Below the pieces are notes generated by a model. It saw only the letters and a program-made list of their open reading frames with translations, had not been told where the DNA came from and searched no databases. The position numbers and the translations under genes are program-made. A stretch of 52,292 nt of DNA from a virus (lineage: Duplodnaviria; Caudoviricetes): IMG/VR virus record IMGVR_UViG_3300047361_000395, positions 1-52,292 of that record; one strand, written 5' to 3'. Shown one piece after another: positions 13,999-22,022 of the stretch (within the stretch, counting starts at the first letter, position 1; each line of letters opens with the position of its first letter).

Positions 13999-14946
13999 TT
14001 AAGGGAAGCTTTTCGAAACTTCTGAGTTTACAGCAAAAACCTCAACCTTAGAATTACTTGTGTTTGATATCTTAATATTTGCAAAATAACCTTTTAAGCC
14101 ATACGATTCTGCTACAGGAGACTTAGCTCCAAATATAAAATCGTTTACAGAAGGAGTGACTGCTGACGCACTTGTTGTTATAGACGTTCCTGTCATTCCT
14201 GATATAGTTCCAATTAATTGATAGCTCCCTGACGTAGCTTTGTAAAGAGAATCTCCTACAGATATTTCAGAAGGAACTGAAGTAAAATTGTAAACATTTG
14301 TTGTGGTGCTAATAAGCATTCCAACCCCCTGAACAGACAACAGCTCGGTATTAACTAAATCTGTAGAATTTCTTCTTATATAAGAATAATGAAACCCTTC
14401 TTTCTTTTCAAAAGAACTTTTATCTATATGACCTTGGTCTAGGTTCGTTGCAATAGTTACATCCCAATCCTTAGCGTCACCTTCAATCTCTATGGTTTTG
14501 AACATTTTAACATCTCCTGATGCATCATTAGACACAAACTCTAGCTCCGAAGGGTATGTTGCTCCATAAAAATTATTCCTGTTGGCGTCATTTGCGTGGT
14601 GCTTATAAAGCTGACCGCTTTTAAATGTAAAAAAATCTCCATTCATGTTGACCATAGACTCTGGTATCCACGAGTGGAAAGATGTCCATCCATTTACATA
14701 CTCACTAAAGCTTACCGTGTAGTTGTTTGAACCAGTAACTGTTGGATTCTTGTATGCCTGAGTAGATGGCGTTGTTGGGGTAACAGTTACCCCAGATGGA
14801 AGCGTATTAACGGGGCATTCGTCAGACAAATATTTTTCGATATAATCAGTGTCTGAAGCCACATTAGCTTTAGTTATGTTAGTAGGCTTTCCATTAACAT
14901 ACTTCCTTAGAGTTTTAACTTTTCTGTATCCTGATCTATATTTCAT
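13999..14946 (-). CDS. tail nozzle/stabilisation protein, C-terminal part encoded as a separate gene
   Basis: TVSFSEYVNGWTSFHSWIPE...FFTFKSGQLYKH...KMFKTIEIEG...KKEG...GLKGYFA...EVFAVNSEVSKSFP resembles the C-terminal region of Flavobacteria-phage tail tubular/stabilisation proteins. Confidence 0.7.
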   Translation of the reverse strand: MKYRSGYRKVKTLRKYVNGKPTNITKANVASDTDYIEKYLSDECPVNTLPSGVTVTPTTPSTQAYKNPTVTGSNNYTVSFSEYVNGWTSFHSWIPESMVNMNGDFFTFKSGQLYKHHANDANRNNFYGATYPSELEFVSNDASGDVKMFKTIEIEGDAKDWDVTIATNLDQGHIDKSSFEKKEGFHYSYIRRNSTDLVNTELLSVQGVGMLISTTTNVYNFTSVPSEISVGDSLYKATSGSYQLIGTISGMTGTSITTSASAVTPSVNDFIFGAKSPVAESYGLKGYFANIKISNTSNSKVEVFAVNSEVSKSFP

Positions 14947-14948
14947 AT

Positions 14949-17900: not shown

Positions 17901-20900
17901 ATCTGAATCGGTGTCTGTCGTCTCCGTAGGATCTAATGGGAATGCATCGCTTGAGTCTAGTGTTCCGTCGTTATCATCGTCTGTGTCGACATCATCTATT
18001 GATCCATCTCCATCACTATCGACTTCATTTACGTCTGCTATTCCATCATTATCATCATCTGGGTCTGCATTGTCCCCAAGGCCGTCTGAATCAGAATCTA
18101 CTGTTTCTGTAGAATCGAGTGGGAATGCGTCAGAGGAATCAAGGACGCCATCTCCGTCGTCATCAGTATCTGCATTGTTCCCAATACCGTCTCCGTCTGT
18201 GTCTATACTTTCTGTAGAATCTAAAGGAAATGCGTCTGCTGTATCTAATACCCCGTCACCATCGTCATCAGTGTCCTGATTATTTCCTATGCCATCTCCG
18301 TCAGTGTCAACAGATTCATTAGGGTTTGTTGGTAAAGCATCACTTCCGTCAAGTACCCCATCATTATCGTCATCCGTGTCAGTTGAATTAGGCGTGCCAT
18401 CTCCGTCAGTATCAGTATCATTGTTATCATCAACACCATCGCCATCCATGTCGCCTTCATTAACATCTAAAATACCATCGCCGTCATCATCGGTATCAGC
18501 ATTGTCTCCTGTTCCGTCTGAGTCTGTGTCGGTTGTCTCAGTAGAGTCCAAAGGAAATGCATCTTGAGCGTCATCAACCCCGTCTCCATCATCGTCGGTG
18601 TCAGCGTTATCTCCAACACCATCCCCGTCCGTATCAACACTCTCTGTTGAATCTAGTGGGAATGCATCTGCGGTATCAAGCACGCCGTCGTTATCGTCGT
18701 CTGTATCTATAGAGTCAACAGTACCATCGCCATCTGTATCTGTACTATCATATAAAATTTCACACTCTACTTCGTCTTCTCTCCATTCTTCTTGCGTTCC
18801 ACGGAGTGATAATGAATAAGAACGGTCAGTTGGGTCATATCCTCCTATAACATCAGGAGTCACTTTTAAAGCATCTCCGAACCAATCAAGCATTCCATAG
18901 TCTGATATTTGTGTTATACCATCTTGAGATAGTCTGCAAACCACCCTTCTTCTTTCATCTACAAAGTAAATTCTTCCTCCCCATATTATCACAGCAAAAG
19001 GATTAGCTGTAACCCCATATTCTCCAAGATAAGGAATATCTTGCCCTAAAATATTTGTACTGGAAGCAACATTTCCACTTCCATCGGCATTAAATAAAAC
19101 ACTTTTATTAAACAACAGCTTAGAAACTCTGTTTTCCTGAAACACAACCAAATCTGATTCTCTTCCTACAATCTTGTTGATACTTCCATAGAAGTCATCC
19201 ATATCTTTGTAGTTTGCAGTAGATAAGTTAAACTCGTTTAATCCGTTGTATTTTGTTGTTTGGTCATAAACATTACTGTAGGTTAATGAAGTTGTTCTGT
19301 TGTTTTGTTTATAATCCTTTAAGTTTGATGATGGCCTATTTTCTGGCTCAAAAAACTTAGCATTAAAATCGTCTTTTATTTTATATGACTCAACACAATT
19401 TCCCCATGAAAAACAATTGAAAAACGGAAGCTCGAAAGTAGCTTGAGTTGAATCTGTTTGAGTTGTGCCTCCAGCGGGGGCCTCGTGATACCCTTGACTA
19501 TTTATATTGTATGTTGCCGGAAGCTCATAAAATATCTCAGAGTTTATTGTTTCTGGTTTTGTTTCTAAATTTATTATGTCAGTTGTCTGTCTTGTAAATA
19601 AAACAAATGTGTTGTCTATTTTAGCTCTTTTGCTTATTGATGTATTTTGTTGAAACTTAGATCTTATAACCATTAAAAGATCACTAGTCAAAGAGTTATC
19701 TATAAGAGACTGCCTAGATCCATATGTTCCTCTTAAAAAAAATATTCTGTTTTCAGGAATATCAGGATTTAATATTGCTTTGGCTCCGCTTTCATGATAC
19801 CATTCTTCTAGGTTTTTGAATGTTTGATTAACTACAAACTCATGTGTTACAAACTGGTCCCCCCTGTTGTACTCGTCGTATGTAAAATTTATTATTGTTC
19901 CTAAAGGTATTTCTTCTTCTGTTTGGGGAAAACTTCTAAATTGAGAATAAGCTCTTTCACCTCTTACGCTTGCGTTAGTGTAAAGGGCGTTTATTGTTGA
20001 GGGTCTAGCGTTAAACATCCACCTGTCGCCTATTGTGTGCCCTGTTGCAGCAGCAAAATCAATTGTCAATCCAGATCCAGTAAGAGCTATTGGGGTTCCT
20101 GGTGTCATGGTTAAGTTTGTTGCGCTTAAAGTATTTGTGCCATCATTATCAAGAGTATCGACTGACCATTGGAATGTATCAACTATCAAAGAACCATCTC
20201 CGTTAACATCTACATTAATTCCATCAATTTCAACCCTAATTCTGGCAAACTGCTCAGATATAGTGTATGTTCCGCCAAGAGTTACGTCGGTTACAGCTCC
20301 ATTTGTTCCATAATAAAAAGGACCTTCAACTACTGAGGAGTTAAATTGAATGCTTAAAGGGTTGTCTCTTTTATTACTAGAATCATCATAATCAGTATGT
20401 TCTGTTCTAACAAAATCATCTATAGAAAGACTATATCCGCTTGGCTTAAATTTAGCATAAAATCCTGGCTGCTGTGCAATTGGAGGATCTCCAGTTCCTG
20501 GATAAGTGTCATCTTCTAAAAAGTTAACACTTTGCTCTTTCATCTCTAAAACTTGAGTCTCCACAAGGCCTGTTTTAACGCCTCTAGAGTCAGCTTTTAC
20601 CACAAGGAATTCTCCTTCTTTTATTTTATTTTTATCATTTCCGTTTAACTGAACATAAACGTAACCTGTTTCTTGTTCCTCGTAAAATATCGCAGGAGAT
20701 ATGCTTTCGTAGTTTCCTTTACTTTGCTTTATATATATTCTATATTTTTTTGCAAAAGCAGGAGGCAGGTGATTTATTGTTACCTGCAATTTATTTTGTA
20801 GCTTTTGACTGCTTAACGGAATATTTGTGCTAGACTGAGGAGAGGTAATAACAGTTGTAGACCTCCCATAATCGTCTAAATAAATAATTCCAGCCTCATA

Positions 20901-22022
20901 GTCTTTATTACTTTTCACGCTTGAAACAGGAGGTGTAGTTATTGTTGCTGTTGTGGCTTGTAGATTAATGTCTGGTTTTATTTTTTTCCCGTTAGAATCA
21001 ATAAGGTTAAAATTTTCTACATAATTTCCATAAACAATCCTGTTGCCTATAAGTTGTTGAGTTTTTGCCTTTAAGGGCACATTATCATATACCCTAAACA
21101 ACTCTTTTTCTGCAAGGGCTTTGTATATTTTTGAGTTTTTAAACAAAAAGTTTTGCGTAGCATTATTTGCATAAGATTCATCTTCCTTGTTAATAGATTC
21201 CACAACGTACACAACACTAGAGTTACTTTCTTTAAAAACAATCTCTACGTCTGTAACGTTTTTTGACCCTGTATCAAACTGTATGCTTACTGATCCGTTT
21301 GCATTTACCATAGACTTATTTAGTCCGGTAGAAAAATCTAAAGAAAAAGATTTAGGAAAAAAAGCTACTTCCGAAAAAGGAGACAACGCACTATACTCTC
21401 CATGCTTATACTTATATCTATAGGAAAAATAAAGAAATCTTTCTTCAATAGTATTTTCTTCATTTGTTGCGCTTTGAAGAGTTAAGACTGGCGGGTACAA
21501 TGGTGGTTTTTGTATAACATCTATGTCATATTTATCAAAATCGTTTCCGTCTATAAGCTTGGCAGAATCAATTTCAACCCGCCTAGGAGGATTCAATCCA
21601 TCTGTAAAAAACAAAAATCTTTTATTATTGTCAATATCTATAAGAATATTTGACTCAATAAAATTAGTTTTTGTAAAATTTAAAACATTATTGTGCCCAG
21701 TTCTTGTATCTATTAAAACAAATGAAGACGCATTATTGTCAGAATCATATTCACAAACATAGCTTCCTAAGTCAGATCTTACAAACCAATATATCTTATT
21801 ATTAACATCGTCAGCTACAGATCCAATACAAACAGGATTATTTCCCATGCTCAAACTAGATAGCACGGCATTAGAGATTTCATTCTCTACTGATCCAACA
21901 TCTGAACCACTAGAGTTTGCAACCTTTACATTTAAAGCATCACGATACTCTCCTTTCTGAACAAGCCTTTCATCCAGGTCTTTGTTCATTTTTCCGGAGC
22001 TGAAGATATTTTTAAACTTCAT
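14949..22022 (-). CDS. tail nozzle/stabilisation protein N-terminal part fused to a TSP3-like repeat array and a C-terminal beta-rich domain
   Basis: N-terminal [42 protein letters not shown]-x2-GEYS-x-[35 protein letters not shown] and GGYDP, then Asp-rich repeats. Confidence 0.8.
16570..18750 (-). repeat. thrombospondin type-3-like Ca-binding repeat array (~35-aa/105-bp unit)
   Basis: Consensus [35 protein letters not shown]; 14 exact DAFPLD copies plus variant units (GTNPLD, GTDPLD, DALPTN). Codons vary between copies. Confidence 0.9.

Follow-up and report, generated by a model that had tools for sequence, protein, structure and literature searches.

Gene organization and family assignment of the split locus

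The DNA analysed here, referred to throughout as the window, is a 52,292-bp IMG/VR record (IMGVR_UViG_3300047361_000395) of a tailed virus, estimated by CheckV to be 85% complete. Its minus strand carries two adjacent open reading frames (ORFs), P0001 and P0002, which correspond to the two parts of a tail-tip muzzle (nozzle) protein. The first-pass annotation had described a large ORF that stops at a TAG codon and a small one that starts two bases later; these coordinates, lengths and junction were confirmed, and the protein strings quoted from both ORFs are present (a 29-letter string from aa 1060 of P0001, and TVSFSEYVNGWTSF at aa 77-90 of P0002; aa, amino acids). The features that define the locus are as follows.

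14949..22022, minus strand: P0001, the large ORF (N-half), 2357 aa
13999..14946, minus strand: P0002, the small ORF (C-half), 315 aa
14944..14951, minus strand: junction, with TAG at 14951-14949, a spacer of 2 nucleotides (nt) and ATG at 14946-14944
18795..22022, minus strand: N-fragment core, P0001 aa 1-1076, with the large inserted distal domain of a crAss-type muzzle together with its ring-joining segment and the greater part of its beta-propeller
13999..14721, minus strand: C-fragment core, P0002 aa 76-315 plus stop, which adds the rest of the propeller strands and the muzzle's C-terminal domain

The proposal that both ORFs are consecutive parts of one nozzle protein was borne out by BLASTP. 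P0001 aa 1-1076 align to aa 2-1077 of gp097 of Cellulophaga phage phi38:1 (39% identity, E=0), and P0002 aa 76-315 align to aa 1078-1323 of the same protein (34% identity, 9e-37), covering gp097 without gap or overlap. An equivalent tiling is obtained on gp25 of Flavobacterium phage elemoA (1470 aa, 2e-43). Such a tiling on one homologue goes far beyond what chance could explain. The surrounding genes (228, 285, muzzle, 133, 230 and 548 aa) match phi38:1 gp095-gp100 in order and size.

The P0001 core belongs to PHROG 14478 (2.4e-254). The Pfam family crAss_MUZ (PF25731) matches P0001 aa 932-1063 over profile positions 1042-1176 of 1224 (50.3 bits against a cut-off of 27, E=1.4e-13), a match that appears when aa 1-1087 are scanned alone and is absent from the scan of full-length P0001, and crAss_MUZ_C (PF25729) matches P0002 aa 122-193 (63.5 bits against a cut-off of 27, E=2.6e-17). 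The muzzle protein gp44 of crAss001 (Protein Data Bank, PDB, entry 7QOK chain A) was reached through tblastn, Pfam, hhalign and Foldseek only, and searching the PDB by sequence or profile with P0002, P0001 aa 1-1087 and profile A1 gave chance-level matches or none. With hhalign, P0001 aa 5-163 (profile A4, 21 sequences) align to gp44 aa 7-160 (probability 90.3%, E=1.5e-6), the alignment of the N-part profile being confined to the first 160 residues of gp44, and with tblastn, P0002 aa 75-166 align to gp44 from about aa 1199 of 1371 (E=3e-6). Because the break is thus equivalent to about aa 1199 of gp44, it falls in the part of the propeller that follows the IG2 domain.

Folded alone by AlphaFold2, P0002 reaches a mean predicted local distance difference test (pLDDT) score of 66, moderate over aa 100-315 and below 50 over aa 1-93, and therefore seems to need a partner. 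The best Foldseek matches of this pLDDT-66 model are 7qol_P and 7qok_A (E about 7e-6, probability 1.00), with a template modelling (TM) score of 0.28-0.30 and a root-mean-square deviation of about 16 Å. The single polypeptide of a crAss-type muzzle is interrupted in the window by a stop and restart between the equivalents of gp097 aa 1077 and 1078, and the gene pair is accordingly filed as a split variant of the crAss-type muzzle (crAss001 gp44 family). Compared with a single chain, the added material comprises 1281 aa in P0001, the stop, 2 nt and a 75-aa lead-in in P0002, about 4.07 kb in total; the insertion of about 3.8 kb proposed earlier fits the part inside the large ORF but falls short of this total.

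Position of the break and model of the two-chain complex

P0001 aa 1-340, P0001 aa 866-1130 and P0002 were modelled jointly as three chains, each with its own alignment. The complex model yielded interface scores (ipSAE, the interaction prediction score from aligned errors) of 0.86, 0.86 and 0.85, against 0.65 for the best control, in which chain 1 was replaced, and 0.00 for both controls with a replaced partner. In calibration, 116 of 157 solved complexes and 2 of 215 mismatched pairs attain the mark applied to ipSAE, counts that hold only roughly for three chains with their own alignments. Contacts agree to at least 80% between model runs, and the partner pLDDT is at least 72. The predicted complex is in line with the earlier suggestion that the protein reassembles from two chains.

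In the model, strand YSLSL of P0001 (1069-1073) runs antiparallel to strand YTVSF of P0002 (76-80). The lowest-error pairs are Y1069-F80, S1072-T77 and L1073-Y76 (2:204-3:80, 2:207-3:77 and 2:208-3:76), whose residue numbers have constant sums, indicating an antiparallel hairpin. P0002 aa 90-135 contact P0001 aa 29-31, 52-54, 65 and 79, and the small chain therefore also closes onto the N-terminus of the large one. According to the model, the break sits in the turn of a propeller beta-hairpin, and the propeller strands of one chain are predicted to complete the blades of the other. The elemoA protein carries a 15-aa insertion exactly at this turn, which indicates that the loop tolerates insertions.

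Distribution of the split among relatives

A scan of IMG/VR with P0002 recovered 18 loci, in 14 of which, at 99% down to 51% identity, an ORF of its own encodes the C-fragment with the same lead-in. What precedes the C-fragment varies among these loci. The window and six further contigs (L004, L005 and L007-L010) have thrombospondin type 3 (TSP3) repeats and a distal domain, to which L006 and L015 add an extra tail of about 150 aa; in L011-L014, the N-fragment ends after the TSP3 repeats, and a stand-alone ORF of about 1195 aa lies between it and the C-fragment. L016 has a 1026-aa ORF directly before the C-fragment and L017 a 1020-aa ORF that is truncated by the locus edge, the pre-break parts of both lying outside the fetched DNA. 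Such stand-alone ORFs of 1026-1195 aa (L011:2400-5987, L016:763-3843, L017:1-3063) share the conserved ending ...LP[ND]Y[DN]QC[NS]; those of L011 and L016 match no Pfam family, and they are regarded as candidate fibres.

A broader census was assembled from a pre-break profile (A2), which found 511 relatives, the best 80 of 511 being kept, together with the P0002 loci. It comprises the window and 67 loci, each from a distinct contig and with high-scoring segment pairs of at least 150 aa for both halves; L010, L012 and L014 (same contigs as L024-L026) and L013, L019, L021, L065 and L080 (short segment pairs) were dropped, and about two dozen loci that end before the C-part or lack the pre-break part stand outside it. 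Among these relatives, 55 of the 68 loci are split at this hairpin and 13 are single chains. The first-pass annotation had held that the motif at the start of the C-fragment core normally follows GGYDP in one chain, which is true of phi38:1, the elemo phages, Gundel_1 and crAss001, all single chains across the break, but of only 13 of the 68 loci sampled.

The stop-to-ATG spacing is -4 to 37 nt in 28 of the 54 split loci other than the window, and in the remaining 26 the halves lie 301-5775 nt apart, with whole ORFs between them in L011, L016, L019, L027 and L028. The C-fragment ORFs mostly start right at the break with M-x-x-x-T-[IL]-[ST]-[FY] (MANYTITYS..., MAQYTLTYS..., MATTITFDE...). The N-fragment runs past the break in every split locus, by at least 102 and up to about 1500 aa; homologues encoded as two genes with no insert, which had been named as evidence against an insertion, are thus not seen in the census. 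Matches to Pfam (E<=0.001) were found in 14 of the 21 post-break extensions scanned and include Big_9 (Ig-like), cadherin-like, He_PIG, BACON, Fib_succ_major, TSP_3, TSP1 and weak fn3 domains, families that are mutually unrelated. The extension at L033:10658-14095 contains ten spondin-like TSP1 domains (PF19028, E=4.6e-121), an animal-type adhesion repeat in a phage tail protein.

On an IQ-TREE phylogeny of 459 columns, the split or single state requires 4 changes (3 on starred branches only), compared with a mean of 12 for shuffled labels, none of 500 shuffles being as low. The most distant clade of the tree (L058, L077, L080 and L085) consists of single chains of 1855-2294 aa across the break; since these are much longer, they should carry extra domains elsewhere in the protein. 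In Maribacter phage Panino (PP540027.1, L003:4001-7914), the muzzle is annotated as two coding sequences (946 and 320 aa), which a 110-nt gap separates at about aa 946. The Panino chain is continuous across the hairpin, and its gap lies elsewhere and may represent a frameshift, a sequencing error or another interruption.

Two cultured Cellulophaga phages have the same arrangement. In phi18:3, gp114 (1612 aa) aligns to P0001 up to the GGYDP...YVLS strand, at gp114 aa 1111, and aa 4-240 of gp115 (241 aa) align to P0002 aa 77-314 (3e-46). In phi13:2 (Baltivirus), gp120 (1613 aa) is followed by TAA ACC and then by gp121 (241 aa, starting MPKTITYSEK). Both gp114 and gp115 are flagged 'annotation based on experimental MS/MS proteomics analysis' (MS/MS, tandem mass spectrometry), a support that consists of the GenBank record's note. 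The phi18:3 and phi13:2 proteins are labelled just 'structural protein' in their records, and no text was found that names them muzzle halves.

By sequence comparison, the split is both old and common among these relatives. The idea that this particular insert fissioned the gene, or is peculiar to this genome, is not supported, as 55 of the 68 loci are cut at the same hairpin with unrelated modules. Since most relatives are split there and carry unrelated modules, the fission most likely predates the TSP3 and distal module, which would have been added to an already divided gene or have taken the place of an earlier module.

Modules attached at the break

The appendage leaves from the break point, as had been suggested: P0001 continues past aa 1076 as a collar, a stalk and a distal domain, and P0002 begins with a lead-in and a linker.

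18753..18794, minus strand: post-break collar, P0001 aa 1077-1090, with the motif EWRE[DE]...CE including Cys1087
16527..18752, minus strand: stalk, P0001 aa 1091-1832, TSP3-type repeats with a 35-aa period
14952..16526, minus strand: distal domain, P0001 aa 1833-2357, a 525-aa beta-rich orphan domain
14788..14946, minus strand: lead-in, P0002 aa 1-53, M..G.....T.RKY.....T..TK.N......Y........C, with Cys44
14722..14787, minus strand: Thr/Pro-rich linker, P0002 aa 54-75, variable among relatives (5/22 to 22/22 identical)

Ten sequences in alignment A6, which reach down to 46% identity, all share E214, W215, R216, E217, C222 and E223 of the collar, and collar residues 1074-1090 and lead-in residues 4-47 both lie in the predicted interface of the complex model. 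The reported TSP3-like repeats are present in the stalk, with a match to TSP_3 (PF02412) of 98 bits against a cut-off of 25 and a tandem period of 105 nt (35 aa). It contains 41 D.D.DG motifs between aa 1095 and 1778, and Asp makes up 32% of aa 1077-1832; from these motifs, the repeats are predicted to bind calcium. The GC content is 0.42-0.44 at 16-19 kb compared with about 0.34 elsewhere, a rise that is explicable by codon content without foreign origin because the stretch is 32% Asp, and high GC was therefore set aside as a mark of foreign origin. Opposite the repeats lie plus-strand ORFs (385 aa at 17122..18279, and more at 16571-18567), which are most likely artefacts of the Asp/Gly-codon repeat rather than genes.

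The first-pass annotation had ended the large ORF with an unrelated domain of about 540 aa; an orphan domain is indeed present, but its length is 525 aa (1833-2357). It is 51.7% (L004) and 51.9% (L010) identical to its counterparts, compared with 98.6% and 96.3% for the pre-break core, and is thus the fastest-evolving part of P0001. It matches no Pfam family, a word-based search gave 2 proteins, all ESM Atlas scores were at most 0.77, and a profile search among 1.84 billion representatives returned 5 matches, all from its own family or fragments. The AlphaFold2 model, built on an 8-sequence alignment, was unusable (pLDDT 38). Receptor-binding proteins usually combine a conserved anchor with a divergent tip, and by this analogy the distal domain is most likely a host-surface binding module.

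The lead-in of P0002 is 75-96% identical across the clade. Compared with L017, the farthest relative, it is identical at 44 of 53 positions, the core at 68 of 124 and the tail at 47 of 115, so the lead-in is among the best-conserved parts of P0002, and clearly the best-conserved in this comparison. The window contains no second copy of the lead-in; the module also heads four separate ORFs between the muzzle halves of the sister contigs L027 and L028. M1, G6, T12, R14, K15, Y16, T22, T25, K26, N28, Y35 and C44 are invariant in all seven module sequences, each of which is followed by a Thr-rich linker. L027 and L028 have the EWRE..CE collar with a second Cys 12-14 residues on, which is absent in the window's clade. 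In their muzzle gap, upstream of the two anchor-module ORFs, these contigs also carry a conserved ORF of about 300 aa starting MKYICAQPA... (L027:11567-12478, L028:11419-12318). The lead-in may represent an N-terminal anchor that docks on the collar, perhaps via Cys1087-Cys44, and in the window's clade this anchor may have become fused to the C-fragment, which would then be able to clasp two chains.

Promoter and terminator scans found 27 promoter-like sites (shuffle mean 30.8) and 8 terminator-like sites (shuffle mean 4.6, standard deviation 2.4), numbers near those of shuffled sequence, with neither kind between P0001 and P0002. Two genes upstream of the muzzle, a 228-aa product (22884..23567, minus strand) has a sub-threshold match to an SU10 adaptor (PF24175, E=0.0054, 17.6 bits against a cut-off of 27), and its position fits a tail adaptor or ring protein. 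Further giant ORFs lie in the late module at 5707..11235 (1842 aa), 34997..39661 and 41462..45490, all on the minus strand; the first occupies the position of phi38:1 gp101, a giant 'structural protein' downstream of the muzzle.

Interpretation of the split

The locus probably encodes a genuine two-chain muzzle (nozzle) with a swappable adhesin, in an uncultured podophage related to Cellulophaga and Flavobacterium phages. This interpretation draws directly on the tiling, the family membership, the conservation of the split, the diversity of its modules and a database record that notes both halves in the virions of a relative. Trans-assembly in the window phage, a hexameric stoichiometry, receptor binding and the clasp or disulfide would follow from it by extension, and the 2-nt spacing suggests that translation of the halves may be coupled.

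Among the alternatives, functional divergence of the small protein survives best, although it is unlikely. The large chain alone would then form the muzzle and P0002 would serve another role, for instance as an adaptor or in fibre docking, in keeping with a lead-in module that is common to separate small proteins and with the moderate confidence at which P0002 aa 100-315 fold alone. However, the C-fragment keeps residues that are invariant in single-chain homologues (T77, G86, P95, E183, G286 and others), it is always retained downstream, even past intervening ORFs, and the complex model sets the first strands of P0002 in the propeller against the N-fragment.

Programmed recoding, in which some ribosomes would fuse the ORFs by a -1 frameshift or TAG read-through so that fused and split products coexist, is very improbable. 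The junction reads ...ATA TAG AT ATG AAA, and the P0002 frame is indeed -1 relative to P0001, being open for just 8 codons 5' of its ATG; stop-codon reassignment is moreover known in crAss-like phages, according to the available passages of PMC12386605. Yet the frame of the large ORF continues past the TAG as ATA TGA, so that read-through would meet a TGA one codon on, inspection by eye of a 24-nt stretch revealed no X_XXY_YYZ slippery heptamer, and the long ORFs of the window are intact under translation table 11. The variable stop-to-ATG spacing and the 301-5775 nt that separate the halves in 26 loci also speak against a recoding signal.

An even slimmer chance attaches to an artefact or pseudogene, in which the stop would stem from faulty assembly or sequencing or from a recently acquired inactivating mutation, the functional protein being a single chain. 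Such an origin could account for two ORFs only 2 nt apart in different frames, and phi38:1, elemoA and Gundel_1, all cultured, have their homologue in one chain. The identical junction of TAG, 2 nt and ATG nevertheless recurs on the six further independent contigs named above, the predominance of split loci in the census points the same way, and no independent assembly contains a frameshift-free single ORF. The C-fragment opens with an ATG of its own and a conserved lead-in, joining the frames would place about 1350 aa, without a return path, in a hairpin turn, and the phi18:3 record notes both separate products by MS/MS. An intein, group I intron or homing cassette that is excised from the RNA or the protein is scarcely credible, for despite the group I intron endonuclease gene annotated near the crAss001 muzzle gene, there is no Rfam match at E<=0.1 in 13500-22500 and no intein or endonuclease Pfam family in P0001 or P0002, the extein boundary has no Cys, Ser or Thr after a terminal Asn (residues 74-77 being N-N-Y-T), and the intervening sequence is one long structural-repeat ORF that varies among relatives yet stays open.

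Several points weigh against the two-chain muzzle as well. The complex model scores only 0.21 above its best control, and because the structure of gp44 is solved and the halves of split genes tend to pass, the model may express a likeness rather than prove binding of the chains. The TM score of the P0002 match to gp44 (0.28-0.30) is low. The census is biased towards relatives of the window, being drawn from the best 80 of 511 and the P0002 loci, with 63 of its 68 rows distinct, so that 55 of 68 is no family-wide estimate; the tree of the same 68 rows is quick and unrooted and came with long-branch warnings. The window phage is known from its DNA alone, and the virion note concerns phi18:3. The pair Cys1087-Cys44 is not among the listed contact pairs of the complex model, and the distal domain has no family and a fold model of pLDDT 38, so that its receptor binding is argued by analogy.

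If the two-chain muzzle is accepted, the large chain would supply muzzle aa 1-1076 and the small chain the last 240 aa, and six copies would form the tail-tip plug, by analogy with the hexameric gp44. From each break point, an acidic collar would emerge, followed by a TSP3 stalk of about 740 aa and the 525-aa distal domain. With a chain end at the break, an inserted domain need not return to the propeller, so elongated or arbitrary modules could be attached and exchanged. The 53-aa module of P0002, on its Thr/Pro linker, would probably dock on the collar and thus clasp both chains, possibly with a Cys1087-Cys44 disulfide. The propeller-hairpin cut would in this way turn an essential, symmetric tail-tip protein into a modular scaffold by freeing a C-terminus for swappable adhesins.

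A wider proposal, which is plausible but on balance doubtful, is that the hairpin serves a large podophage group as a general plug-in site for host-recognition modules, either fused to the N-half or encoded as genes between the halves, some of them held by a roughly 45-aa RKY anchor with an invariant Cys on the EWRED..CE collar. Gene layout would then meet protein topology at a single point, a main host-range determinant, and the same solution would have been reached independently by the phage A1002 discussed below. For hundreds of metagenomic contigs, the split offers an annotation rule: a 'hypothetical' or 'structural' protein of about 240 aa (PHROG 18548) would be the missing end of the muzzle, and the variable tail of the giant ORF upstream and any genes between the halves would be candidate host-range determinants. 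The cultured phages phi18:3 and phi13:2 could serve as models for a trans-assembled propeller.

Comparison with known systems

Close counterparts are gp114 and gp115 of phi18:3 and gp120 and gp121 of phi13:2 (Baltivirus, Pachyviridae), which, like the window pair, are cut at the same hairpin. Their N-halves have about 500 extra aa after the break, in phi13:2 cadherin-like by eye, and these extensions are unrelated to the TSP3 repeats or the distal domain of the window. The spacer between stop and ATG is 3 nt in phi13:2 and 2 nt in the window, and in phi18:3 and phi13:2 the C-half starts directly at the break (MPKTITYSEK) without a lead-in, unlike that of the window. The phi38:1 protein gp097 (Callevirus, 1324 aa) and elemoA gp25 are 34-39% identical to the whole window muzzle and have the same neighbour genes, but each is one chain across the break, whereas the window has two.

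For crAss001, gp44 is described in the available passages of PMC10172136 as a tail-tip hexamer that comprises a ring-joining domain and a propeller of seven blades carrying inserted domains. The window shares with it the crAss_MUZ and crAss_MUZ_C matches, the N-terminal 160 aa and the C-fragment, the identity being very low and only local; gp44 is one chain of 1371 aa with no stalk, in contrast to the two chains of the window. The crass and IG2 domains are where the same passages (Bayfield et al., Nature 2023, PMC10172136) place the length variation of proteins of the gp44 type, whereas in the window it lies at the break hairpin. The stalk resembles bacterial TSP3 proteins (PF02412, PF18884), which have the same 35-aa Asp-rich D.D.DG repeats, but in the window these repeats are fused to a virion protein, unlike the bacterial ones. 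Full-text searches of the literature found nothing that pairs thrombospondin type 3 with a phage tail and, in the accessible passages of the 'muzzle protein' literature, no mention of a split muzzle.

An architectural parallel is offered by the Pseudomonas phage A1002. According to the available part of its description (PLoS Biol 2026, PMC13730344), its nozzle is split into gp42, the 'nozzle-base', and gp39, the 'nozzle-rope', which complete each other's propeller and platform; gp39 bears a 300-Å rope for fibre docking, and the authors present the split nozzle as a distinct assembly strategy. As far as that description extends, both A1002 and the window have a podophage nozzle in two chains with a long appendage at the split, which in A1002 serves host attachment, and the C-terminal piece of A1002 contributes the last incomplete blades and part of the platform, as the C-fragment of the window would do. 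The two differ in that the A1002 appendage is the N-terminus of the C-terminal piece and docks 11 fibre dimers, whereas the main appendage of the window is the C-terminus of the N-terminal piece, and in that the A1002 halves are separated by fibre genes, whereas those of the window lie 2 nt apart. The A1002 lineage is unrelated to that of the window, and the likeness, taken from the published description, is one of architecture. By this analogy, the window would realise the idea of A1002 in an unrelated lineage, with the appendage on the other side of the cut and as a widespread modular trait, extending the split nozzle, so far reported for one Pseudomonas phage, to a widespread marine group.

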